From a virus (taxonomy: Duplodnaviria > Caudoviricetes), in IMG/VR virus record IMGVR_UViG_3300005805_000148, positions 1 to 44,582 of that record: 44,582 bases of DNA; one strand, given 5' to 3'. Below are positions 9,153-27,152 of this stretch, piece after piece. The notes under the pieces were generated by a model. It searched no databases. It was not told the DNA's origin and was given only the letters and a program-made list of their open reading frames with translations. The first letter of the stretch is position 1; every line of letters begins with the position of its first letter. Made by a program: the position numbers and the translations under genes.

Positions 9153-9418
9153 TGTTCGTCTCTCCTATATACGAGTTCATAACTTTCTATCCAGAAGTCG
9201 TTGCCGTTGTCTTTCTTCATCAACGATTTTAATTCCGTCTCCCCGTCTGGGCAGTAATAGGCAATTTCTTGGTCTTTTACCCCGAACGGGTCGTGAGTAG
9301 CGTCATCTACCCATTGACTAAAAGAGATATACCAAACACTGAACGCGTCAGGGTCGTTATCGTCAATATATTTAACTTCGCAGGTTGCCCCGACTGGATT
9401 GTTGTTTTTAGTAATCAT
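9149..9418 (-). CDS. acidic hypothetical protein
   Basis: Start re-assigned to ATG 9418; coupled to the upstream gene. Confidence 0.75.
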   Translation of the reverse strand: MITKNNNPVGATCEVKYIDDNDPDAFSVWYISFSQWVDDATHDPFGVKDQEIAYYCPDGETELKSLMKKDNGNDFWIESYELVYRRDEQ

Positions 9419-9657
9419 TGTGTATCTACGCCTCTCGCAACTGCGTCGAGATATTTTTTTATCAATAGAGAGATTATTTCTAGACACTCGTGGTCGGTAG
9501 CCCACTCGCCATCAACATCGTGGAGTGCTGATACTCCATCATAAACCCAGCCTGCAAAGCCACCATAAGCGTCTATAATCTCTTGTAGTTTGTCATCGCT
9601 TGTGAACGGTTCTAGATATCGTTCGTGCCATTGGTCTAGCGTAATTTTTGTATCCAT
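9415..9657 (-). CDS. hypothetical protein
   Basis: RBS GAAAGGAAA before ATG 9657. Confidence 0.75.
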   Translation of the reverse strand: MDTKITLDQWHERYLEPFTSDDKLQEIIDAYGGFAGWVYDGVSALHDVDGEWATDHECLEIISLLIKKYLDAVARGVDTQ

Positions 9658-9720
9658 TCTGTTTCCTTTCATTGTGTTTGTCTTACTTCAAGTGTATCAG
9701 TTTGTATTACGATTTGCAAC

Positions 9721-9748
9721 TTGCCGTAGGGAGCACCCACTACGGCAA
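9721..9748 (-). terminator. hairpin
   Basis: TTGCCGTAG-N10-CTACGGCAA between ORF 9826 and the next promoter. Confidence 0.5.
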
Positions 9749-9825
9749 GCCGAAACATTACAGCCACCAATATTGCCGTCTGAAATTAAATTACGCGCAG
9801 ATAGAGGTGGTGTGTAATGAAACCT

Positions 9826-10275
9826 TTACCACGACGAATGATAATAAAACTCCCATTCGTCGGGAATAGTCAAACAGCGGTCAATTATCTCAACCGTGTC
9901 TTTTAATTTTTCTAAATAATAATCGTCGTATTCGGTTCCACCAAAAAAGAAACCTGCCTGCGTAGGCAATTTAGTTTCTGCTGTTTTGGGGTCAAGAATG
10001 ATTGCTTCGCAAACCTTTTTTAATTCCTCAAGTTGCTCACGCCCGACATATGCCGTCCGACAGTCATCGTTGCCATCTTGGCAGTTGTCTACAAACCATT
10101 GGTGAACGGCATTGACTTTACGCCAATACCCCATACTCACCTCAAGATTGACAAATGGAAGATACTTCTCCATTGACGCACCAATCTTAGATACATCGCT
10201 AAGTTCCTTGAACTTGTCGGCTCCGAAATTAGGTGAATGATATTTTTTTGCGGACAGATACATATCTAATCCCAT
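9826..10275 (-). CDS. conserved phage hypothetical protein (MGLDMYL / YWRK.NA.H.WF type)
   Basis: Motifs MGLDMYL, YWRKVNAVHQWF, LPTQAGFFFG and terminal YYHSSW. Confidence 0.85.
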   Translation of the reverse strand: MGLDMYLSAKKYHSPNFGADKFKELSDVSKIGASMEKYLPFVNLEVSMGYWRKVNAVHQWFVDNCQDGNDDCRTAYVGREQLEELKKVCEAIILDPKTAETKLPTQAGFFFGGTEYDDYYLEKLKDTVEIIDRCLTIPDEWEFYYHSSW

Positions 10276-10392
10276 TGTGTTTTTCCTTTCATTGAGTTAA
10301 TTGCTTACAACACCATTGTATCACGATAGATTGAGTTTTGCAACCTTCTCTTGGATTATTTTCTATATAGCGAATCCGCTATATGCCCCTGT

Positions 10393-10450
10393 CCCGAAAA
10401 TATGGTGTTCCAGAAATATAGGATTTATTTAGGCGCAATCGTTTCCTTGG
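10393..10450 (+). repeat. ~58-bp tripartite element, copy 6
   Basis: Spacers 14 and 9. Confidence 0.95.
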
Positions 10451-10472
10451 CTGGCACCCGGCCCGCCGGTGG

Positions 10473-10850
10473 CTAAACCTTTGGCTTTAATGTAAGCCCA
10501 AAGGTTTCGCACACCACGAACGATTCGTAGCAGTCGGTTGGCGTATCGCCCCACGACATACCTGCTGTTAAATAAAAAATACGATTGTCATCAATGGTGA
10601 AAGAAGCGCAGTCTCTCCTACCGGAGGCAGAATACACTTCTTCTACACATTGCTTCAAAAACGCGGAAACATCATTTTGCTCTACAGATTGTGGTTCTTC
10701 GCCATACCACCGACTAATGCCACAGTGGTCCTCTAAGACCACTAGGACGTCTTCTAGCGAGCCATTCTCAAAGAGGCGCTCCACATTACCGAGAGCCTCT
10801 TCTTTGGTCGCCTGAATCTCATTGAGTGAGAATAGGAGGTCAGCACCCAT
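10473..10850 (-). CDS. hypothetical protein
   Basis: Start MGADL at 10850, coupled; TAGMSWGD.P motif. Confidence 0.75.
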   Translation of the reverse strand: MGADLLFSLNEIQATKEEALGNVERLFENGSLEDVLVVLEDHCGISRWYGEEPQSVEQNDVSAFLKQCVEEVYSASGRRDCASFTIDDNRIFYLTAGMSWGDTPTDCYESFVVCETFGLTLKPKV

Positions 10851-17242: not shown

Positions 17243-17836
17243 ATGAACATACCGATGACTAGTAAGAATACAAAAATTACGTCTGACGGGGTTTCGTCAT
17301 GCCTTCCGTTATTTAGTCCTGAAGAATGTATCCAAATAATCGATTGGGCTATCCGTCACGGTTCCAGCCACTACGGGCTCGTACACGCTCACCAGCAAGC
17401 CTCTAGAGCCTCTCTAAGGCGCTGTAAGGAGTATTTGATAGAACCAGCCTCCATAGCGTTCTCAGATGGCTCTAGTGTTGCTTCTAGGGTCTACAGTGCT
17501 TTCGGTTTAGGTAACATCTGGGATTTAGAGTATTCCGAGGTTCCATCTATCCGGATAATGGAATATCAGGTACGCGACGGATATGGACGCCATACGGATT
17601 GGTCTAATGGCGCGGCTAGACATCGCAAGATATCTATGACCTGTCAATTAAGTTCGCCGAAAAATTACGACGGCGGGGCGGTCACTCTTTACGCTGGTCC
17701 TGAATCCCAAGACATATCTCGACAACAGGGAGCGGCCACGCTGTGGCCGTCATGGACTCTGCACGAGGTTCAACCAATAACTCGTGGTGTTCGCTATTCG
17801 CTTACTGCTTGGGCACACGGGACTCCATACAAGTAG
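17243..17836 (+). CDS. 2OG-Fe(II) oxygenase (PKHD/prolyl-hydroxylase-like)
   Basis: HTD...RKIS...YDGG...PSW.LHEV.PIT.G.RYSL..W. Confidence 0.92.
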   Translation: MNIPMTSKNTKITSDGVSSCLPLFSPEECIQIIDWAIRHGSSHYGLVHAHQQASRASLRRCKEYLIEPASIAFSDGSSVASRVYSAFGLGNIWDLEYSEVPSIRIMEYQVRDGYGRHTDWSNGAARHRKISMTCQLSSPKNYDGGAVTLYAGPESQDISRQQGAATLWPSWTLHEVQPITRGVRYSLTAWAHGTPYK

Positions 17837-17903: not shown

Positions 17904-18590
17904 ATGAAACGAATTATCTTTGTTCTGGCGTTTTTATTCACCTCAGTTTTTAACGCCGTGCCGGCGTCAGCCAAGCCTGAATATACAACTCCACCAATTG
18001 ACCCATTTGACGCAAACAGATACTGCTTTCATTCTGGATGTCCAATCATTTATCCGGGCGCAAAAATTATTGCGCTCAGAACCGACCCGATGTGGCCGAT
18101 GATGGGTACTGCGCCGTTGCATATCCCGTTTATCTATATTGCCCTAGACAACAACGATGGATATTCCAATTGGTGGGAAGCAATCGCTTTCTTGGTTTCA
18201 GAAACCGGCGTACGGATTCCATTAGGTCAAGCCGAAGCGGATGATGGGAACGAGTACAAAGCAATTAAGGTTTCCTGCGAGCCATACTGGAATCCGTGTT
18301 CTCCGTCTTTTAGTTGGTTTAGAACTATAATTCCAGCAACAGCACCAACTGGAACCTATGCACTCGAAGTTCAATTTATTAGATTTGACGGAAAACTTGA
18401 TGCAGTTCATACTTTCGGTCCAAATTTTATTGCAATAACTGCAAAGACAACCCCAACAGATATAAGCAACACCGTAAAAGATATAAGTAACACCGTTTGT
18501 AAAAATGTTGGGCGCAAAAAAAATGTTGATGGTAATTGGTATGCCTGCCTTAAAAAAGGTAAACGACTTGCTTGGCAGAGGCTTTTCTAA
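17904..18590 (+). CDS. secreted/exported protein
   Basis: Signal peptide MKRIIFVLAFLF...ASA; C-terminal C...G......C.K.GK.L.W motif. Confidence 0.8.
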   Translation: MKRIIFVLAFLFTSVFNAVPASAKPEYTTPPIDPFDANRYCFHSGCPIIYPGAKIIALRTDPMWPMMGTAPLHIPFIYIALDNNDGYSNWWEAIAFLVSETGVRIPLGQAEADDGNEYKAIKVSCEPYWNPCSPSFSWFRTIIPATAPTGTYALEVQFIRFDGKLDAVHTFGPNFIAITAKTTPTDISNTVKDISNTVCKNVGRKKNVDGNWYACLKKGKRLAWQRLF

Positions 18591-19084
18591 TGGCTTTAGT
18601 AAAGATTGAAAAATGGGAATACGAGCGGGCGCATGCTGTCGGAATTGCTAGATGTGTAGCAAGATGGGGCTCTAAAGACGCGCCGCATTATCAGGATAAG
18701 GCAAGACAAGAAGACAACCGTACGGCCGAGGTCGCTTCGGCTTTGTGTGAACTTGCTGTAGCAAAACTGACCAATAGTTATTGGCACGGGCACGTTTGGC
18801 ATTGGACCGAGCATGCAAAGCACCGAGACTTACCTGATGTCGGGAAAAATACAGAAGTACGCCGATTGCGCACGCGCGACACCGTTCCTATTCGTCGTAG
18901 ACAAAACGACAAAGAGAACCTAAAGGTTTTTGCTGCTCGGGTTATCGGACCAGAGATGGACTCAGTTGAGGTGTATGGATACATCTCGCAAAAAGAAGGC
19001 TGGGAAACAGGTTCACCCGCTGATTATGACCCGGAAAATACTAGAGTCGTGCATATTAGTCAGTTAATACATCACGAAGACTAA
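18590..19084 (+). CDS. hypothetical protein, possible PD-(D/E)xK fold
   Basis: ELAVAK...PDVG...EVR pattern; TAATG-coupled. Confidence 0.7.
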   Translation: MALVKIEKWEYERAHAVGIARCVARWGSKDAPHYQDKARQEDNRTAEVASALCELAVAKLTNSYWHGHVWHWTEHAKHRDLPDVGKNTEVRRLRTRDTVPIRRRQNDKENLKVFAARVIGPEMDSVEVYGYISQKEGWETGSPADYDPENTRVVHISQLIHHED

Positions 19085-19102
19085 AAGACGTAAACTAAAA
19101 TC

Positions 19103-19582
19103 ATGATAGTCGACACCAAACAAAACGATAAGCAAATTCATACTCGTATTGTTTTGATGGATTTGAACGTGGCTCTATCTTCAAACTTTGGCTCGATGCA
19201 TAAATACGGCTTTGAAGACTTTGTGAAGAACCACGAGAACTACAGACAATGGATGGTTGATTTGTTGCGCGACGAATATGTAATTCTTATTACCGCTCGC
19301 AATATCAAATGGGCTATCCCAACACTTAAACGGATTGCAGATAAAACAGATTGGCAGCCAAACGTGGCTTTATTTAACGACACGGAGTTTGATGGAAAAG
19401 ACGCTCCAAAGATAAAAGAACATCAAATGCTTAATCGAGTTTTCAGCACCTACGGAGATGACCCGAACATCTATCACGCGATTGAATCAAATTCAGGGAC
19501 TCGTGCAATGTATAAGCGCCTCGGCATCCCTTCCGTGCATGATTGCGCTCGATATGGGAGATGGAAGAAACTTCCTTTTTAG
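19103..19582 (+). CDS. HAD-superfamily (PNKP phosphatase-like) protein with atypical motifs
   Basis: hhhhDLN, hhhhTAR, K and hhESN in HAD motif order. Confidence 0.7.
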   Translation: MIVDTKQNDKQIHTRIVLMDLNVALSSNFGSMHKYGFEDFVKNHENYRQWMVDLLRDEYVILITARNIKWAIPTLKRIADKTDWQPNVALFNDTEFDGKDAPKIKEHQMLNRVFSTYGDDPNIYHAIESNSGTRAMYKRLGIPSVHDCARYGRWKKLPF

Positions 19583-19803
19583 GCTTTGCTTTTTTCTTCT
19601 AGTTCGTTTTTGAGTGATTTAATTAACTCAGCATAGAAGCCGGGTGTATCAGTTTTTTCATATATTTGAGCAAGAGCAATTGCAAATTCAATTTCTTCTA
19701 TTGATAATTTTTCAGGAGATATAATTTTGGCTTGCAGTTTGTGGAATTCTGCAAGTTTGCTTTCCCATGACAAATCCGAGTTTGATAAATCTAAATGTTC
19801 CAT
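19579..19803 (-). CDS. hypothetical protein
   Basis: RBS GAAAGG. Confidence 0.7.
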   Translation of the reverse strand: MEHLDLSNSDLSWESKLAEFHKLQAKIISPEKLSIEEIEFAIALAQIYEKTDTPGFYAELIKSLKNELEEKSKA

Positions 19804-19822
19804 AAATAGCCTTTCTTTTTAA

Positions 19823-20026
19823 TTATTCTTCGGACCTTTTCTTCTTTGATTTCTTTTTATCTACCGGACCACGAAGGTCGTGAGTCCTAAGAGGATTACC
19901 GGGCGAAAGACGCTGACGTTTTTTGCCGGCCTTTGTTCCAGATACGGTTTCGGTTTGCTTGGTTATCGGATTGACTCGTTCGCGCTGTTGTGAGCCCCGA
20001 GAAACTTTGCCTTTTTTCTTACCCAC
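19823..20026 (-). CDS. small highly basic protein
   Basis: K/R-rich ORF in operon. Confidence 0.7.
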   Translation of the reverse strand: MGKKKGKVSRGSQQRERVNPITKQTETVSGTKAGKKRQRLSPGNPLRTHDLRGPVDKKKSKKKRSEE

Positions 20027-20029
20027 AAC

Positions 20030-20419
20030 TTATATCCTTTGACCGGTTTTCTGAATTACAAATCCGTCTTCGCGGTCAAGCACCACATAGTTGTAATCGA
20101 TTAAGTCAAAGTACTTTTCGCACTCAGAAAGAACAACATCTACAGGCAAGGTAGAGCATGTGTACAGGTCGAATTGTACGCGGGCAGGAACTAATTCATC
20201 CCAAACATGAAACGAAATATGAGAAGTCTCAATGCATACTGTTGCAGTAATGCCACGATTGCCTTCCGCTTCAACATAGTGAGCATGAGGACCGGTCACT
20301 ATTTTCATCCCAATTTTATCAACTAACTGAGTGAGCCAGTCTTTTACTGAATCAACGTCTTGAGGCGGACGGTATGCCTGTCCATTCATCAAAAGGTGGT
20401 TGTGCAAAATTTTTGTCAT
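20030..20419 (-). CDS. speD: S-adenosylmethionine decarboxylase proenzyme
   Basis: HLL...GITA...IETSHISFH.W.E....QFDLYTC. Confidence 0.9.
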   Translation of the reverse strand: MTKILHNHLLMNGQAYRPPQDVDSVKDWLTQLVDKIGMKIVTGPHAHYVEAEGNRGITATVCIETSHISFHVWDELVPARVQFDLYTCSTLPVDVVLSECEKYFDLIDYNYVVLDREDGFVIQKTGQRI

Positions 20420-20870
20420 GAGCAACTTTCTTTATAAAATCTATGTCTTCCGGGTGGACAATATAGTCTATAATTTTCCTATACCGGAGAAAGGATGCCC
20501 TGACCGACCAAGTTCTCTTATTGGCAATACCCCAAAAAGAAGCCAGTAAGGCTCTGGTTGACTCAGAAAATCCACCCCAAATGCCGTGCGGCTCATACTC
20601 AAGAGAATAGAGCAAACACTTTTGTCTTATGGGGCAAGAACGGCAAATTTCAAAGGCTGCTTTTTGCGCAATAACGTCAACGGTTGAATATTTACCATTG
20701 TTGTGAATTGGAAAAAATAAAGATGTATCTACGCCGGAGCAAGAGCCACCTTTTGGCGTATCCATGTCCTCTCCAACTAGGTAGTTTCCGTTAGCCAAAA
20801 ACATGTCTTCGACATATGGCTTTTGGGAAGTCGGAATATCTTTTTCAGTTGAATAGTAAATATTTTTCAT
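20352..20870 (-). CDS. whiB: WhiB family transcription factor
   Basis: C...D..LFFP...IC..CP....CL...E.HGIWGG. Confidence 0.92.
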   Translation of the reverse strand: MKNIYYSTEKDIPTSQKPYVEDMFLANGNYLVGEDMDTPKGGSCSGVDTSLFFPIHNNGKYSTVDVIAQKAAFEICRSCPIRQKCLLYSLEYEPHGIWGGFSESTRALLASFWGIANKRTWSVRASFLRYRKIIDYIVHPEDIDFIKKVAHDKNFAQPPFDEWTGIPSASRR

Positions 20871-20891
20871 TAATTATTCCTTTCATTGGTT

Positions 20892-21089
20892 TTAGTGACT
20901 GTATGACCACTCATGTCTTTCCTTTAACATCAGGACCGCTATGTTGAAAACTATGTCCTCTTCAAAGGTAAAAATTCCATTAGAAGTACATATGTAATGG
21001 ATTTCTGATGTTGTAAATAAATCGCATTCGCTAGGGTCAACAGAATGTGATTGTAAGGCTTGAGTTATAACAACCGCAGAGGCGTACAT
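20892..21089 (-). CDS. hypothetical protein
   Basis: ORF in operon. Confidence 0.55.
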   Translation of the reverse strand: MYASAVVITQALQSHSVDPSECDLFTTSEIHYICTSNGIFTFEEDIVFNIAVLMLKERHEWSYSH

Positions 21090-21346
21090 GCGCTGCCAAT
21101 ACTTAGCGGTGCCGCCTTGCGTGCTAAAGGGTTAACCACCCTCTTTAAAAACAGTTCAATAACATGGTCCCAAGTTTCTTGAGACGGTGCCGGGAATCCC
21201 GCTTGCGCAGCGAGTTTCACACGATTTTTTATGTCCATGTTTTTAACCGTAAAAGGTTTTAGTCCCAACTCTTCAATTCTGTCAACAATTTTTACCGCTT
21301 TAAAAAAACGATTTTGACGCTTGTATGGATTAGGTTCAGTCTCCAA
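21065..21346 (-). CDS. hypothetical protein
   Basis: ORF in operon; A..AG..APSQETW motif. Confidence 0.7.
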   Translation of the reverse strand: METEPNPYKRQNRFFKAVKIVDRIEELGLKPFTVKNMDIKNRVKLAAQAGFPAPSQETWDHVIELFLKRVVNPLARKAAPLSIGSACTPLRLL

Positions 21347-21542
21347 ATGGAATCTCTTTTTCTGTTGTTAATGACCAAACTTTTGTTCTGGTCTTTGTGT
21401 TGTTATTTACTTTAGCGACATTATGTTCTTTCACCAACTCTTGAGCAGCGCCAAACGCCAAAGAAGTAATCATCAGTAATATAAAAAATACAAAAGCAAA
21501 CGTCCAGCCGAGTATGGCCAAAATCAAAACAAACATACTCAT
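21336..21542 (-). CDS. membrane protein
   Basis: N-terminal hydrophobic helix; ATGA-coupled. Confidence 0.7.
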   Translation of the reverse strand: MSMFVLILAILGWTFAFVFFILLMITSLAFGAAQELVKEHNVAKVNNNTKTRTKVWSLTTEKEIPFGD

Positions 21543-21823
21543 TCTATAGGGGCTCGTCCACCTGCAATTATTTTTCTAGCGAGAGCAACCATTTGCTGAA
21601 TGAGAGGTTTTGAAACTGTAAGTTCACCAGCCATTGCTGAATAAGAAAGACCGTCACCATCCAGTCCGCCAAACTCACAAGACTCTTTAATGGCCAAAGC
21701 ACGAAGTTCAATAATGTTTCTTCGAATTTCTGCAACGCTTGGTAATAGTTCGTAATGTAGAACGCGCGCCCTTTCAACAGGGTCAGTCATTTTTTGAACT
21801 TCTTTAATTTTTGACTCAATCAT
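21539..21823 (-). CDS. HTH-like protein
   Basis: GLSYSAMAGEL.VSKPLIQQMV. Confidence 0.7.
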   Translation of the reverse strand: MIESKIKEVQKMTDPVERARVLHYELLPSVAEIRRNIIELRALAIKESCEFGGLDGDGLSYSAMAGELTVSKPLIQQMVALARKIIAGGRAPIE

Positions 21824-21825
21824 AT

Positions 21826-22227
21826 TTACTCCAACTCGATAATTTCTAGCCTGGCTTTATTTTCTCCTGAGATAACTGGTGCCTCAAATACAAGTCTACG
21901 CACAGTATCCGGTCCATCTTCGATAAGGATGCCTGCGTCTACAAGCCCGTCAATCATGGCTTTTGCTACCGGGAAATGATTTCCAGTATCTGGCATACTC
22001 TGCCTGTTGCGCCTATGGGGGGTGAACCGGACTTCTACGGCCTTCATTTTGGGTATTTTTCGGGCTTTAGCGGCTACGCAAGTAGCGCTTCGCCATTCTT
22101 TAACCTTTTTACCTACAGCAAAATGATTTAATGTCCGCTCTTTATTTAGAGTCCACATTTCACCCCAAACTTCCACTACGTATGGAATATCGCTAATCGG
22201 TGGCGCTGGGTTCTTTTTTTTACTCAT
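21826..22227 (-). CDS. RusA-like Holliday junction resolvase
   Basis: D..N....KAMIDGLVDAGIL.ED motif. Confidence 0.85.
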   Translation of the reverse strand: MSKKKNPAPPISDIPYVVEVWGEMWTLNKERTLNHFAVGKKVKEWRSATCVAAKARKIPKMKAVEVRFTPHRRNRQSMPDTGNHFPVAKAMIDGLVDAGILIEDGPDTVRRLVFEAPVISGENKARLEIIELE

Positions 22228-22946
22228 TTGAACGCTACCCACCCCGCAAAATTAAGACATTGCCAAAATCTTTGTATATTTGTAAAGCCAGCGTCCTTGA
22301 GCATCGACTCATTTTCTGACGCCCTTAATGGAACCAGTACACCTTGAAGCGATTTGCGCTTTTCTTCAATTTGTTCATCGGTATATCCTTTTTCTCGCTT
22401 GAAGTCGTGATAAATGTCTACAAGTAAAGCCTGCGAAGAAGGCGTTTCACCTAGTACCTTCTCAACGATAATAAAAACCCCATCAGTAGAGAGACCTTTA
22501 TGAATCTGTTCATAGAACATTTGGCGCGCATCGAGAGGGATGAACTGCGCCGTAAGTACGCAAGTAATGACGGTATATTTGCCCGGAAAAATTTCGATAT
22601 CGACCAAATCACTTTGAACAAAATTTACATTGTTCCATCCTTGAAAAAGTTCCTGCGCTTTCGCAATCATGCTCAAAGATGAGTCAACGCCGACGCAAAC
22701 GATTTCAGAATTAGGTTCAACTGCGTCAAGTATTTCGTAAATAGTGTCTCCTCTAGAACAGCCAAGGTCCAATAAGTATTGATTGTGTCTTTCGGGAGAA
22801 AAAAAACTTTTGGCAATCCTGACTACAGAATCGCGCATTGTTCCATATCCGGGAATTGAGCGAGAAAGCATGTCAGGAAATACAGAAGTTACTGATTCAT
22901 TGAACTCCCACTTTCCGCTTGGCTTGTAATTATCTTTTTCGTTCAT
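22224..22946 (-). CDS. cmoA: carboxy-SAM synthase (CmoA-like)
   Basis: W.F.E.V..VFPDML.RSIPGY, DLGCS.G, QFI, EK, I..KR.SL and L..AGF....WQCLNF match CmoA along the full length. Confidence 0.88.
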   Translation of the reverse strand: MNEKDNYKPSGKWEFNESVTSVFPDMLSRSIPGYGTMRDSVVRIAKSFFSPERHNQYLLDLGCSRGDTIYEILDAVEPNSEIVCVGVDSSLSMIAKAQELFQGWNNVNFVQSDLVDIEIFPGKYTVITCVLTAQFIPLDARQMFYEQIHKGLSTDGVFIIVEKVLGETPSSQALLVDIYHDFKREKGYTDEQIEEKRKSLQGVLVPLRASENESMLKDAGFTNIQRFWQCLNFAGWVAFK

Positions 22947-24490
22947 AACTCAATGCCGAGTCTTTTAGAAAATGCTGCCTTAGCCTCTTGTGCCATACCT
23001 AAACGACGACCTTCTGGGTGGGGTACATTAAACTCAAATTCAAGAGCCTCTCTTAATCTGTCCGGGTTAATAGGTTTTGGGTTTTCGGCTACAGCCTGGA
23101 CACATCCACTTTTTGCAGTCATAAACGTATCTACTGTTTTGAACCCATGATGAATAAGTTCTTCGAATTCTGTTTCAGTGTGGAATTTTTGAACTTTTGG
23201 TTTTAGGGCTATATCTGACAACACAACACGAGGTTCGTAGTCAAGCGTAAATCCTCTGCTTGAAGTGTCATGGCTTTTTTTAAGGTCTCCACGGGTGTGA
23301 TTGAACCAACGGTCTGACTCGGATGAAACCGCGACAGCGTGGCATTTTGTTTGCGGGGAGGACAGGGCCGCAACAATCGTCATGATATGAAGTCTGTCTT
23401 GAAGAAATGGCACGCTGTTGAATACGTGAGAAATAAAAATACTGTCCCACTCCGTCTTGTCGGCAACACGCTCTAAAAACTTTGCGGTCAGTTTGCGTGC
23501 ACCTTCCGTGTCAATATTTTCGTTGTCCTTGCCTAGAAAGAAAGGCTCAAAAGCAACAGCATCAACACCAAGTCCATTAAGTATTTCTGTCTTATCGCAT
23601 AGTCCAGCACCAAAGTCAATGACGTGAGTGCCATAATATTTTTTCCACATCTCAATGTGCTTTTCGTTTTCCAATTGAAAAGCGCCCACTCTGTTGCCGG
23701 TGTTGATGTAATGGCGGATTAGGTCTTCTACGAAGACCGTTGAAAGAGTCGTCTGTCTTTGATTCTTTCTGCGAAAAGAGTTATACCTAAGTAGGTCTTC
23801 ATATCTTTCCTGAATGTTGTAATCCATCGTTAGTAAATTTAACATCGCTTGGATATGGCTGGCATATTTCTCATCAACAAAAACAACGTTTACCGTGTCG
23901 TAGTTTTCTTGGATTGCAAAAGTTAATCGCGCCCTACCGTTCAAGACTCTGTAATCCGGGGTGCATATCACTGGCAATTGAGGCAAGCCATTTGATTTAA
24001 TATATGAAGCCATCTGTACGGCGTGCGCTTCGGGCCACCGCTCATTAAGTTTTGCAAGTCTTAATGTTGCAACCGGCTTTTGATTTAAAATTGGATACCA
24101 TTCAGGCGTGTCAACAGGTACGTCTGGAAGTGTTTTGATTTGATTTATTTCATCAATCCGTTCAAGTAATTCATTTTTTAATTCTTTAGTTGACCGAGTT
24201 TTATACATGTCATTCGTCGCGCGATTATAGAGAACGTTGATACCCATTCTTCTATCAACTTTAAAAAAGGGCACACGAACAACCGGAACCATTTTTGCTC
24301 CAAGACGTTGAGCGATAAGATGTCTTTGATGGCCGCTAAGTATTTCACCGTTTACGTCTGCGTAAATAGGTAAAAGCCAACCAAACTTACGCAATGACAG
24401 TTCAACTAAATCAAGTCTTTCCTTATCCGCTTTACGTGGATTGTAAGCAGAAGGAGATAGGCCATCGATTGGGGTCAATACAGGCTTCAT
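22943..24490 (-). CDS. ParB/Srx-domain protein fused to a Rossmann SAM-dependent transferase
   Basis: YNPR, ILSGHQR and second LNGRAR; C-terminal IDFGAG, AFEPF and DSIFISHVFNSVPF. Confidence 0.85.
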   Translation of the reverse strand: MKPVLTPIDGLSPSAYNPRKADKERLDLVELSLRKFGWLLPIYADVNGEILSGHQRHLIAQRLGAKMVPVVRVPFFKVDRRMGINVLYNRATNDMYKTRSTKELKNELLERIDEINQIKTLPDVPVDTPEWYPILNQKPVATLRLAKLNERWPEAHAVQMASYIKSNGLPQLPVICTPDYRVLNGRARLTFAIQENYDTVNVVFVDEKYASHIQAMLNLLTMDYNIQERYEDLLRYNSFRRKNQRQTTLSTVFVEDLIRHYINTGNRVGAFQLENEKHIEMWKKYYGTHVIDFGAGLCDKTEILNGLGVDAVAFEPFFLGKDNENIDTEGARKLTAKFLERVADKTEWDSIFISHVFNSVPFLQDRLHIMTIVAALSSPQTKCHAVAVSSESDRWFNHTRGDLKKSHDTSSRGFTLDYEPRVVLSDIALKPKVQKFHTETEFEELIHHGFKTVDTFMTAKSGCVQAVAENPKPINPDRLREALEFEFNVPHPEGRRLGMAQEAKAAFSKRLGIEL

Positions 24491-24495
24491 AACAG

Positions 24496-25806
24496 TTACT
24501 CTGAGCGTCGCGGACTGCTTCTTTTTGAGTTTCGCTGACGCGTGGCGACATAAGAGTCGCTAGGTATACCCAAAAGAGAAATCATTCCTGAGCAGACCTC
24601 TTCAAGTGAGTAACCATATTCCTCAAACATTTTTTCTTCCCATTCGTCAAAGTAGTCTGGGGCCATTTTGAATTCCCATTTCCCAATTGTCGAGGTAACG
24701 TTGCGGGGTTTATCGGATACCTTTGTTGCTTTTTCTTTCATACCCCATCCAGCGACCTCATGCATTAGGTCGTCCAAATCATCGCCGGTATAACCAGAAC
24801 CCTCAAAAGCCGGAAGTGTTTGAAGTATTTCTGCTAGTTCTACGTGGTCATAAGAACCAAGGTCGGCAGTTTTGTTGTCGGCCAAAACAATCCTGGCTGC
24901 TGCCTCATCATCGGCATCAATAAAAGTTGCAGCAATTTCTTTCCAGCCCAACATTTTTGCCGCTTTCCATGTGTGATTACCAACGAGTATTGAGTTATCT
25001 CTTTTATTAACAACAATCGGTCTGAACTGTCCGTTCTTGGCTAAAGACTCAGAAATCAAACCAACGTCTCCTTGTCTGGCGTTCATCGGATAAGGAAAAA
25101 CACTGTTGATGTCAATGGTCTCCGTCGACAGCATTACTGAATGCATTTGCTGTCTGTCTATGTTTTTCTTTTTATTTTTTGGTTTAGCCCTATCTGACGG
25201 GATATAGTCCACATCAGATAGATGCAAGCGACGTTTTAGTTCTTTAATGATTTTTTCATCTGAGTCGTTAGACTTTTCAATTTCGCTTGCCCAGTCTTTG
25301 AATACGTCATCATCAACCATCGCCCTGTAAGTGCCAACACAAACTCGAATTTCGGTTCCAACCTGACCAGTCCTATCATTGTTTGGCGCAGTAAAAGCAC
25401 CTTCTCCAGATAGCAGCGTTTGTAATTGTTCTATATCTACATCCTTGAATCCCGTGCCATCTAAAGTCGGCAAAGATTCGAGCAATTCAAGGAGTTTTGA
25501 ATCATCATAAGATGACATATCCGAAGTCCTGTTGTCTGCAAGAACAATTTTTTGAGCGCCGTAGTCGTCGACATCAACATAGGTGACTGCAATATGCGTC
25601 CATCCAAGACTCCTAGCGGCACGCCAGGTGTGATTGCCTGCAAGGATTGTCGAATCACGACGATTTATTACAATTGGCTTGTATTGACCATTTACCTTTA
25701 GCGACTTTGCAATTTCTTCCACATCGCCACGTCGTGGGTTTTTAGGGTAGGGCTTAAGACTTGTTATATCTACTATTTCTGTTTCTACTTTTATGTTGTC
25801 GCTCAT
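24496..25806 (-). CDS. tandem ParB-N/Srx domain protein
   Basis: Internal duplication: NPRRGDV...GQYKPIV...AGNHTW...LADNRT and NARQGDV...GQFRPIV...VGNHTW...LADNKT. Confidence 0.92.
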   Translation of the reverse strand: MSDNIKVETEIVDITSLKPYPKNPRRGDVEEIAKSLKVNGQYKPIVINRRDSTILAGNHTWRAARSLGWTHIAVTYVDVDDYGAQKIVLADNRTSDMSSYDDSKLLELLESLPTLDGTGFKDVDIEQLQTLLSGEGAFTAPNNDRTGQVGTEIRVCVGTYRAMVDDDVFKDWASEIEKSNDSDEKIIKELKRRLHLSDVDYIPSDRAKPKNKKKNIDRQQMHSVMLSTETIDINSVFPYPMNARQGDVGLISESLAKNGQFRPIVVNKRDNSILVGNHTWKAAKMLGWKEIAATFIDADDEAAARIVLADNKTADLGSYDHVELAEILQTLPAFEGSGYTGDDLDDLMHEVAGWGMKEKATKVSDKPRNVTSTIGKWEFKMAPDYFDEWEEKMFEEYGYSLEEVCSGMISLLGIPSDSYVATRQRNSKRSSPRRSE

Positions 25807-25829
25807 ACAGGCGAGTATAGCCGATATAT

Positions 25830-26177
25830 TTAGTTCGTCTGTTTTAAAGTTTGCTTTATGCTCTTGATAATTTGAGCAATTTTTTCCTTATCTTCTTCTG
25901 TCTGTGCCGGCTCTAATTCTCTCATTTTTCGTTCTTCACGGTCTTTAGCGTCCCACAAGCGCTGCTTATGCATAGGCAGGACTACTTCCCTAAATTCAGC
26001 CCACGATGGCCAAAACCTAGAGGTTTCTTCTATTTTTTTTACTGCACGTTTCGCGTCGTCAAAATAGAACTCAGCGAGATTACCTTCCCAGCGTTTTACT
26101 TCTTCAACGACCAACTGTTTTGAGGGAAAACAAATATTCAGTTCCGCAATTATTGCGTCTGCTTCGTCTATCGTCAT
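25830..26177 (-). CDS. replicative helicase loader/inhibitor (G39P-like)
   Basis: MT..EA..II..L...FP; W...L; FWPS.AEF; downstream of the initiator. Confidence 0.7.
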   Translation of the reverse strand: MTIDEADAIIAELNICFPSKQLVVEEVKRWEGNLAEFYFDDAKRAVKKIEETSRFWPSWAEFREVVLPMHKQRLWDAKDREERKMRELEPAQTEEDKEKIAQIIKSIKQTLKQTN

Positions 26178-26485
26178 GGCGTGTGAAGAATTAGAGGGGT
26201 ACGCTCGCCAACCCAAGAACCGGCGACATTATAGTCAATCCACTCAATCGCTTCGTCTTCAGTCATGCCTTGCTTTATAAATACTGCTACGAGCAAATTG
26301 TATGAATAAACGACTACTGGGTCAAGATTGATTCTAGTTGCATATCCCATGATGGCTTCGTCGCAACCATCAAAAACAATCGCGCCTTCAGCAAATTCAT
26401 CTACGAATTCTCTAGTCGATGGAGTACCAAAGTCCCATCCTTGATAATTTTTTTCTGGGTCATAAAATGTTTCATTACCCGACAT
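26174..26485 (-). CDS. conserved phage hypothetical protein
   Basis: DG.DEAI.G...VVYSY...M..DEAIEW..YN..G.WVG..TP. Confidence 0.85.
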   Translation of the reverse strand: MSGNETFYDPEKNYQGWDFGTPSTREFVDEFAEGAIVFDGCDEAIMGYATRINLDPVVVYSYNLLVAVFIKQGMTEDEAIEWIDYNVAGSWVGERTPLILHTP

Positions 26486-27152
26486 TTAATTCTCCCATCA
26501 TTTTTGGTGAAGTTATTTCACGCTGTTCACGAGCAGCCTTGATGGCGTTCCAGCCTTGAGGCACAACACCTTTGAGGCCGTTCATATCTAGTCGGCTTGG
26601 GTCGCATTCAGACCACCTATTAACAAGAGCAGTTGGAGTCAATGTTGCCTGAGGAAACTTTTGTCTATAAGCCTGAGCACGAGCAAAAATATCATCCGGA
26701 GTTGCATTACTTTCTTTTAGAACACGAACCATTCGTCCGTATCTGCTTGCTTCCGAAGAATTAACATTATCGGGATTGACATTGCACGCAGTAAGTAGTG
26801 CGTCCCATATTGGATTTCTTTTTCGCTCAGGCTGTTGCTTGGATGGTTTTTTCGTGCTCTGATTTTCAGTACTTGGTTTTTCGTCTACGGAATTCGTGGA
26901 GGTAATAATCCTGTAGAGGCTTGATGTTCCTTGTCTTTTGACTACTGATAGTTCACCCATAGAGACTAGGTCTTGGATTTTCCTAGTTACGGTGCGCTCA
27001 GAAACGTTTGCCCGTCGAGCGATAACGCTAATTCGAGGGAAAGCGTCTTCTCCTTCACTATTGCAGTGGTCGGCAATTACTAGAAGGATAAGTCTTTCAA
27101 GTCCTTGTGCTTTGGATTTTTCAAAAACCCATTCCATAATTTTTATTGACAT
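26475..27152 (-). CDS. HTH replication initiator / replisome organiser
   Basis: MSI..M.WV, LILL.IADH.N.EG..FP....IA...N.SERTV...I..L...G. Confidence 0.85.
   Translation of the reverse strand: MSIKIMEWVFEKSKAQGLERLILLVIADHCNSEGEDAFPRISVIARRANVSERTVTRKIQDLVSMGELSVVKRQGTSSLYRIITSTNSVDEKPSTENQSTKKPSKQQPERKRNPIWDALLTACNVNPDNVNSSEASRYGRMVRVLKESNATPDDIFARAQAYRQKFPQATLTPTALVNRWSECDPSRLDMNGLKGVVPQGWNAIKAAREQREITSPKMMGELNVG

Follow-up and report, generated by a model that had tools for sequence, protein, structure and literature searches.

A phage module linking CmoA homologues to a ParB-fused class I transferase family that may carboxymethylate DNA

A three-gene operon in a phage record

We analysed the whole of a linear virus record of 44,582 bases (IMG/VR record IMGVR_UViG_3300005805_000148; hereafter the window), which contains an operon encoding a tandem ParB-N protein, a ParB-fused class I transferase and a homologue of CmoA. 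In bacteria, CmoA and CmoB form the pathway to uridine 5-oxyacetic acid (cmo5U) in tRNA (PMC3663124, PMC4482062). In Synechococcus phage S-B43, CmoA, CmoX and CmoY produce 5-carboxymethylcytosine and its glycine amide (Yang et al. 2025, PMC12783734). The window is estimated to be 58% complete and its genes include siphovirus-type tail genes, WhiB, a replication initiator and RusA; the WhiB gene suggests an actinobacterial host. The window sequence occurs in lake metagenomes, with no RNA data set among those listed as containing it. No tRNA genes were found in the window, and a promoter scan gave 26 sites against 26 expected.

The three open reading frames (ORFs) of the operon lie on the minus strand and encode proteins of 436, 515 and 240 aa (Table 1). 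A 5-bp gap (TAA CTGTT ATG) separates the first two and an ATGA overlap joins the last two; ORF coordinates and junction sequence agree with the tight linkage described in an earlier reading made from the letters alone (the sequence-only reading). Region 18500-26500 was recovered as a single piece in an independent assembly, which differs by 294 substitutions and has no gaps, and the operon genes are under purifying selection, with ratios of nonsynonymous to synonymous polymorphism (pN/pS) of 0.10-0.24 relative to two relatives. In one related contig, most of cmoA (window 22322-22908) is represented by a diverged stretch of equal length, with both flanks close, possibly reflecting allele exchange of cmoA among close relatives. 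A fourth gene of the module, encoding a HAD protein, lies 2.6 kb away on the opposite strand, outside the interval covered by the sequence-only reading.

Table 1. Positions of the module's genes and of the transferase domain in the window
Feature	Position	Strand	Basis
Tandem ParB-N-like protein, likely DNA-tethering partner	24496..25806	-	Pfam PF02195 x2, self-alignment
ParB-ParB-class I transferase ('family A', phrog_5475), predicted carboxymethyltransferase	22943..24490	-	Profile match, model
Lid and Rossmann transferase domain, residues 223-474	23069..23824	-	Fold matches, conservation
CmoA homologue, predicted carboxy-SAM (carboxy-S-adenosylmethionine) synthase	22224..22946	-	TIGR00740, phrog_4752, kept residues
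Capless HAD, T4 polynucleotide 3'-phosphatase fold, fourth module member, displaced here	19103..19582	+	Model, neighbourhood

CmoA accompanies family A and is absent from its sister family

The 515-aa transferase matches phrog_5475 across its length (E 3e-90). We refer to its family as family A; 591 clusters (50% identity) match it at E<=0.001 and 197 at 1e-30, counts that may include sister-family proteins. A first set comprised 164 family-A loci, 161 with a clustered transferase ORF, and 129 of these had at least 3 kb of downstream sequence. A full CmoA-like gene was present in 125 of the 129, a fragment in one and none in three, and all family-A clusters at 60% identity (25/25) had such a gene. 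A second scan with divergent members, partly overlapping the contigs of the first, found CmoA in 51 of 52 loci. The coupling holds at 30-40% identity and across many host groups. Among cultured phages, the module is carried by Gordonia phage Evaa, Aeromonas phage HJ05 and Pseudomonas SM1-like phages. Terminase-like genes were present in 91/164 loci (labelled by reading the sequences; that of Evaa is annotated), and among the 45 commonest neighbour clusters, as read, there was no ligase or kinase and there were no dnd genes.

A weak match in Escherichia phage vB_EcoM-613R2 (URC09238.1) led to a sister family homologous to family A over its full length (hhalign E 1.7e-42). Unlike family A, none of its 81 loci carried a CmoA-like gene; 69 of these had at least 3 kb downstream, they fell into 25 clusters, and about 20 of the 81 came from one phage group. 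Only full-length matches were counted, since the CmoA profile matched in all 14 controls; by this measure CmoA was also missing from 32 whole sister-family records, which held four short weak matches to generic methyltransferases. Thus, linkage to CmoA (125/129 v 0/81) belongs to family A and is not general to loci with ParB and a methyltransferase, and the co-occurrence that the sequence-only reading had proposed as a check is borne out. The sister family (loci L170-L251) is itself uncharacterised, is mislabelled 'nuclease' in some records and is abundant in E. coli prophages, where one cluster has 806 members.

We looked for other enzymes with which CmoA might work. CmoB, CmoX and CmoY gave no match in the window (tblastn, E 0.1; the record being 58% complete), in line with the earlier remark that CmoB is missing. 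A C5-methyltransferase was found in none of the 15 closest relatives (15/15; 21-79% complete) nor in the complete Evaa, HJ05 and SM1 genomes, by a search that detected 4/4 positive controls; the window and these three genomes also held no other CmoX-type user of carboxy-SAM. The idea that the true partner is a CmoX encoded outside the locus was therefore set aside, again with the incompleteness of the window record in mind. The module is real, widespread and uncharacterised in phages: the openly accessible literature yielded no description of family A, nor of the DNA chemistry of Evaa or Samunavirus.

The CmoA homologue and its exchange of partners

The 240-aa protein matches E. coli CmoA (E 8e-33) and phrog_4752. 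It keeps the equivalents of E. coli Y39, D62, G64, S66, D89, D117, F137, E164, K198 and R199, and the kept cofactor contacts (as given for the E. coli enzyme in PMC3663124) fall at R197, Y34, D60, S64, D88, D113, F135 and E162 of the window protein. The position of E. coli N132 holds Val. The proven S-B43 synthase (SpCmoA), 28% identical to the window protein, has Leu there and Glu at the position of Arg199, so such changes are no argument against activity. The C-terminal KR emphasised in the sequence-only reading is present, with K196-R197 aligned to E. coli K198-R199, but it is a weak marker: across 144 family members the preceding Lys is invariant, but at the Arg199 position R (74) is often replaced by E (52) or A (11). 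With Glu in SpCmoA, R199 was rejected as a yes/no marker of phage CmoA. It is highly probable that the homologue makes carboxy-SAM.

We then compared CmoAs from phages with either kind of transferase in a tree of 39 rows, with Afa-NA1 left out and family-A rows thinned at 62% identity. The C5-methyltransferase-linked group was set from gene content before the first tree and the approximately unbiased (AU) test followed a quick tree. CmoAs of the C5-methyltransferase-linked phages were interleaved with those linked to family A: the five such CmoAs, among whose partners only that of S-B43 is a proven CmoX, required at least three changes, and a single clade was rejected (p-AU 0.0001). The CmoA of Evaa was sister to that of phage TurkishDelight (support 100/99), whose gene order of ParB, ParB, C5-methyltransferase, amidotransferase and CmoA places another transferase in the same slot. 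CmoA is therefore likely to have changed partners, repeatedly and around one shared product, and both kinds of transferase likely use carboxy-SAM. For family A this cofactor is very probable. Co-occurrence, the interleaved tree and the lack of a C5-methyltransferase in relatives all favour the earlier proposal that the CmoA homologue and a non-C5 transferase form a carboxy-SAM system.

A different arrangement was seen in Alcaligenes phage Afa-NA1 (PV550095.1, L169), which has a CmoA-like gene and neither a C5-methyltransferase nor a family-A transferase. A D12-class adenine methyltransferase with DPPY lies 2.5 kb from its CmoA (features at L169:6001-6753 and 9226-10545); it may be a third kind of partner for CmoA and, in this one genome, a genuine N6 candidate. 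Five other CmoA phages gave no family-A match, in a search made without a positive control.

Architecture of the transferase

The sequence-only reading had described a ParB-N domain followed by a Rossmann domain. A ParB_N match does lie at the N-terminus, but it is weak (E 3.8e-4) and below cut-off. The model, together with an invariant N184-G185-x-x-R188, suggests a second ParB-like segment at about residues 138-222. The C-terminal Rossmann domain was confirmed by the structure model of the whole protein (predicted local distance difference test score, pLDDT, 90; predicted template modelling score, pTM, 0.86), in which a class I domain spans 223-474, and the motifs listed in that reading are present: DFGAG (292-296), FEPF (314-317) and SHVFNSVPF (354-362, with NSVPF at 358-362), besides LRYNSFRR (234-241) and PKVQK (431-435). 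We found no match to a Pfam DNA-methyltransferase domain, PF00145 included, and no SPPC, as expected from the earlier statement that a C5-methyltransferase motif is lacking. In one family-A transferase, P0264, an intein-like insert of about 350 residues lies at FNRA/TND, an invariant motif in the first ParB domain; this position suggests that the motif is functionally critical.

The best fold match was METTL6 (Z 13.0; root mean square deviation (rmsd) 3.3; 192 aligned; VIA-align with the whole 515-residue model, matches spanning 228-474). It was tied within 1 Z with small-molecule methyltransferases, and Trm9 (11.2) and Hen1 (9.8) were also among the matches listed. Neither the 50 best VIA matches nor the Foldseek PDB rows listed included a DNA amino-methyltransferase, and a search of viral structures returned ParB or methylase matches that were only partial. 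At the sequence level, the best PDB match of the family profile was UbiG (E 0.005), with NSVP placed on its EHVP ('MLEHVP'). The nearest named hidden Markov model (HMM) family was TIGR04096, matched weakly by 4/44 family-A members (best E 7.8e-5) and 6/79 sister members; a function for TIGR04096 was not found in the literature.

Both families share N358-S359 (VLNS), Q434-K435, R235 and an EFxLP motif. R240, R241, R366, K432 and R510 are the basic residues of the transferase domain that distinguish family A. In the sister family, K432 is replaced by Phe, and beta-4 ends in an invariant Asp in place of the Ser, Asn or Ala of family A; such differences would fit a pocket remodelled for an anion. 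The basic pocket residue sought in the sequence-only reading thus has candidates in K432, R240 and R241 from the family comparison, none of which could be placed in the pocket. N358, which the sister family shares, aligns weakly with CmoB Y200 (69 columns, probability 21%), and may be located at the transfer site. In CmoB, Y200 contacts the carboxylate of carboxy-SAM (PMC4482062).

The ParB and HAD partners

As the sequence-only reading had it, the 436-aa protein is a tandem ParB-N protein: it contains two ParB_N stretches (Pfam PF02195, E 1.4e-16), and its halves align to each other, an internal duplication of a ParB-N-like unit. It has GNHT where ParB usually has GxxR, and G57-N58-H59-T60 is invariant in 26 tandem members. 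A ParB gene was present in 150/164 family-A loci and 76/81 sister-family loci, and the protein is likely to be a DNA-tethering partner of the transferase.

The HAD gene was found by searching the window proteins against 163 related loci. Of the 129 family-A loci with 3 kb or more of downstream sequence, 111 have it within the flanks, usually immediately after the transferase gene, and several close relatives carry it elsewhere in the genome; none of the 81 sister-family loci has it. It is also absent from the complete SM1 and HJ05 genomes, where CmoA stays, and from 18 of the 52 loci of the second scan, where CmoA is kept. The HAD model (pLDDT 93) has a capless HAD fold, matching the T4 Pnkp phosphatase best (Z 14.9, rmsd 2.6, 130 aligned). 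The top matches are polynucleotide 3'-phosphatases (Z 14.9, 14.3 and 14.2; next 12.1), including Pnkp1 of the Pnkp1/Rnl/Hen1 complex. A DxD motif I defines T4 Pnkp-type 3'-phosphatases. Here motif I is D-x-N in 135/140 rows and motif IV is ESN; phosphatase activity of the HAD is therefore unsure.

Restriction-site avoidance

GATC and AGCT do not occur in the window (0 and 0), against about 115 and 143 expected (229 and 285 over both strands), and CTCGAG and GCTAGC are likewise absent. Of the 14 closest relatives with enough sequence, 13 had loci without GATC and AGCT, and some also lacked CCGG. Other family-A phages avoid other palindromes, lineage by lineage. Such avoidance points to strong host restriction at GATC/AGCT sites. 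A search for a target motif in k-mer bias was abandoned, with none found and the avoided palindromes differing between lineages.

Proposed function and alternatives

We propose that the CmoA homologue would convert S-adenosylmethionine (SAM) and prephenate to carboxy-SAM, from which the ParB-fused class I transferase would place a carboxymethyl group directly onto a DNA base nitrogen at a restricted number of sites. The enzyme would be kept on DNA during replication or packaging by the tandem ParB protein together with the transferase's own ParB domains. K432 or R240/R241 would bind the carboxylate and N358 would face the transferred group. A fold without a catalytic cysteine motif implies a direct SN2 step, and transfer would thus proceed as in CmoB. 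The HAD would be an accessory phosphatase or phosphotransferase, dispensed with in some lineages. Overall, we consider it somewhat favoured that this second, CmoA-coupled transferase family carboxymethylates phage DNA; that the acceptor is a DNA base is itself probable. Within this scheme the nitrogen would probably be an exocyclic amine, adenine N6 or cytosine N4, but taken by itself this target is doubtful: alkylation of N3-C or N1-A would block base pairing, and an exocyclic amine is preferred over ring nitrogens only because base pairing is preserved. The mark, if real, would be sparse or motif-limited.

Family A may accordingly represent a second, independently evolved class of DNA carboxymethyltransferase, arisen from ParB-fused phage methyltransferases and present in phages of many host phyla, the cultured carriers Evaa and Pseudomonas phage SM1 among them. 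Its product would be N4-carboxymethylcytosine or N6-carboxymethyladenine (or else a DNA end or backbone bearing a carboxymethyl group), as a natural DNA modification so far undescribed; this view falls a little short of probable. If active, family A would extend the known natural DNA marks by one and offer DNA labelling a new enzyme for installing carboxylates, and the CmoA-less sister family would be a ready control for a methyltransferase cofactor switch.

Several observations weigh against this interpretation. The operon sits in a replication gene cluster on the minus strand and is not terminase-adjacent in this phage. The CmoA homologue scores below cut-off on TIGR00740 (161 bits v 193) and NF011995 (119 v 285), models that describe bacterial CmoA. 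Many family-A loci are near-copies, and of the three loci without a local CmoA, two show a full-length match at another place in their assembly and the third shows none. A C5-methyltransferase occurs in 3/28 family-A records and 1/5 further ones; three such genes that were read are ordinary (GGYPCQ, Asn). Among the matches listed, down to Z 9.7, the closest folds are tRNA or small-molecule enzymes. R235 and K435 are common to the CmoA-less sister family, R240, R241 and K432 are conserved in 81-89/101 rather than invariant, and R366 was set aside as a carboxylate ligand, being in register with a generic class I Arg present in CmoA itself. Since GATC and AGCT are absent, these sites are not protected by the mark, and a shield over the whole genome is disfavoured. 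Finally, the likeness of NSVPF to an amino-methyltransferase motif IV, on which the sequence-only reading had relied, did not hold: the motif lies four residues past the end of beta-4, one turn on, in register with UbiG EHVP and not with NPPY, and none of 162 family-A members has [DNS]PP[YFW]. NSVPF is thus rejected as an NPPY-type motif IV, and the acceptor may be another atom than an exocyclic amine.

Part of this evidence could be read as an enzyme carboxymethylating an oxygen at a DNA end, on the backbone or on a free nucleotide, the HAD preparing or removing a phosphate to give a capped end or modified precursor in place of marked bases within the genome. The resemblance of the HAD to polynucleotide 3'-phosphatases, its presence with family A and not with the sister family, the unrelaxed avoidance of restriction sites and the weak link to the phosphorothioation-associated TIGR04096 all speak for it. 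We nevertheless regard it as unlikely, given that the HAD is missing from SM1, HJ05 and 18/52 second-scan loci with CmoA retained, and that its Asn substitution leaves phosphatase activity in doubt. A plain SAM methyltransferase like the sister family, with CmoA acting apart (for example, draining SAM or feeding another enzyme), would account for the motifs common to both families, for the three loci without a local CmoA and for the failure to locate a carboxylate-binding residue. It is rather unlikely in view of the near-complete coupling to CmoA across divergent members and many host groups, set against none in the sister family, and of the lack of another CmoX-type enzyme to use carboxy-SAM in the window or the complete genomes.

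The nature of the acceptor allows two further alternatives. METTL6 is a tRNA cytosine-N3 methyltransferase and, with Trm9, Hen1 and the match of the HAD to Pnkp1, would suit an RNA acceptor, through either CmoB- or METTL6-like carboxymethylation of tRNA or, jointly with the HAD, protection of RNA ends in the manner of Hen1. However, METTL6 is tied with small-molecule enzymes, the CmoB match is short and weak, no ligase or kinase is common among the neighbours and the window has no tRNA gene, whereas the ParB fusions and the terminase genes often found as neighbours favour DNA; RNA is an improbable acceptor. Quite improbable is a protein (the ParB partner or terminase) or a small molecule: small-molecule methyltransferases make up most of the fold matches and the best PDB sequence match is UbiG, but a generic class I fold says little about substrate, and other phages have DNA C5-methyltransferases in the same slot. 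More generally, DNA modification is predicted for ParB-terminase loci that contain methyltransferases (PMC4738411).

Relation to known systems

Family A is the other frequent partner of phage CmoA besides CmoX, the only published DNA transferase using carboxy-SAM that we found in the literature. In a search that Yang et al. 2025 (PMC12783734) describe as preliminary, no carboxymethyltransferase for adenine N6 or cytosine N4 turned up in linkage with phage CmoA. Like the S-B43 system, the module has a phage CmoA beside a transferase, no CmoB, ParB-domain neighbours and CmoAs interleaved in one tree. Unlike it, the partner is a ParB-ParB-fused class I domain of UbiE/METTL6 type, without the PF00145 domain or SPPC, and there is an additional HAD; CmoX is recognised by a C5-methyltransferase fold, SPPC and R350. 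An AMP-forming amide ligase such as CmoY, an optional part of that system, is missing from the window and the 164 first-set loci; a gene of this kind, of the Asn_synthase family, occurs in 1/66 second-scan loci. Thus, the module would work like CmoA-CmoX without being a member, its transferase belonging to a different family.

The CmoA fold, most of its cofactor contacts (R199 included), the beta-4 register of N358 and Y200, weak as it is, and the ATGA coupling of cmoA to the transferase gene recall CmoA-CmoB; E. coli cmoA and cmoB overlap by 4 bp. Homology to CmoB is confined to the stretch from motif I to beta-4, with Asn at Y200, and full-length homology with K91, Y200 and R315 was not found in the transferase; the ParB fusions and phage context differ as well. 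With the sister family (e.g. URC09238.1), whose members lie in terminase loci of phages, family A shares full-length homology, a ParB gene directly upstream and the VLNS, QK and EFxLP motifs, but the sister family has no CmoA or HAD nearby and has the beta-4-end Asp, an Arg after beta-5 and Phe for K432. DNA amino-methyltransferases (NPPY) have in common with family A a Rossmann class I core, motif I ahead of a beta-4 motif and an invariant Asn near the transfer site; the Asn of family A lies four residues later, and the NPPY-type motif and any Pfam DNA-methyltransferase match are missing. TIGR04096, the nearest named family, is matched far below family level, with no dnd genes among the common neighbours in family-A loci. 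The HAD shares the capless fold of T4 Pnkp and differs by its D-x-N and ESN motifs.

One related family-A locus shares a further feature with S-B43, an Asn_synthase-family gene. At L268:3933-10374, genes for this protein, a 376-aa unknown protein, ParB, a family-A transferase and CmoA lie on one strand; the Asn_synthase-family gene is 2.7 kb upstream and the 88% complete record has no C5-methyltransferase. By analogy with CmoY, such a gene would fit a carboxylate handle, making this single case a candidate hypermodification variant.

Other genes in the window

A homologue of S-adenosylmethionine decarboxylase lies at window 20030-20425 (minus strand; Pfam E 2e-13), 1.8 kb from cmoA. It is a second SAM-consuming enzyme in the window and is uncommon as a neighbour in distant loci. 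A 2-oxoglutarate (2OG)-Fe(II) oxygenase is encoded at window 17243-17836 (plus strand); similar genes cluster in 20/164 family-A loci, and Erwinia phage Y3 has an annotated 2OG-Fe(II) oxygenase near CmoA.

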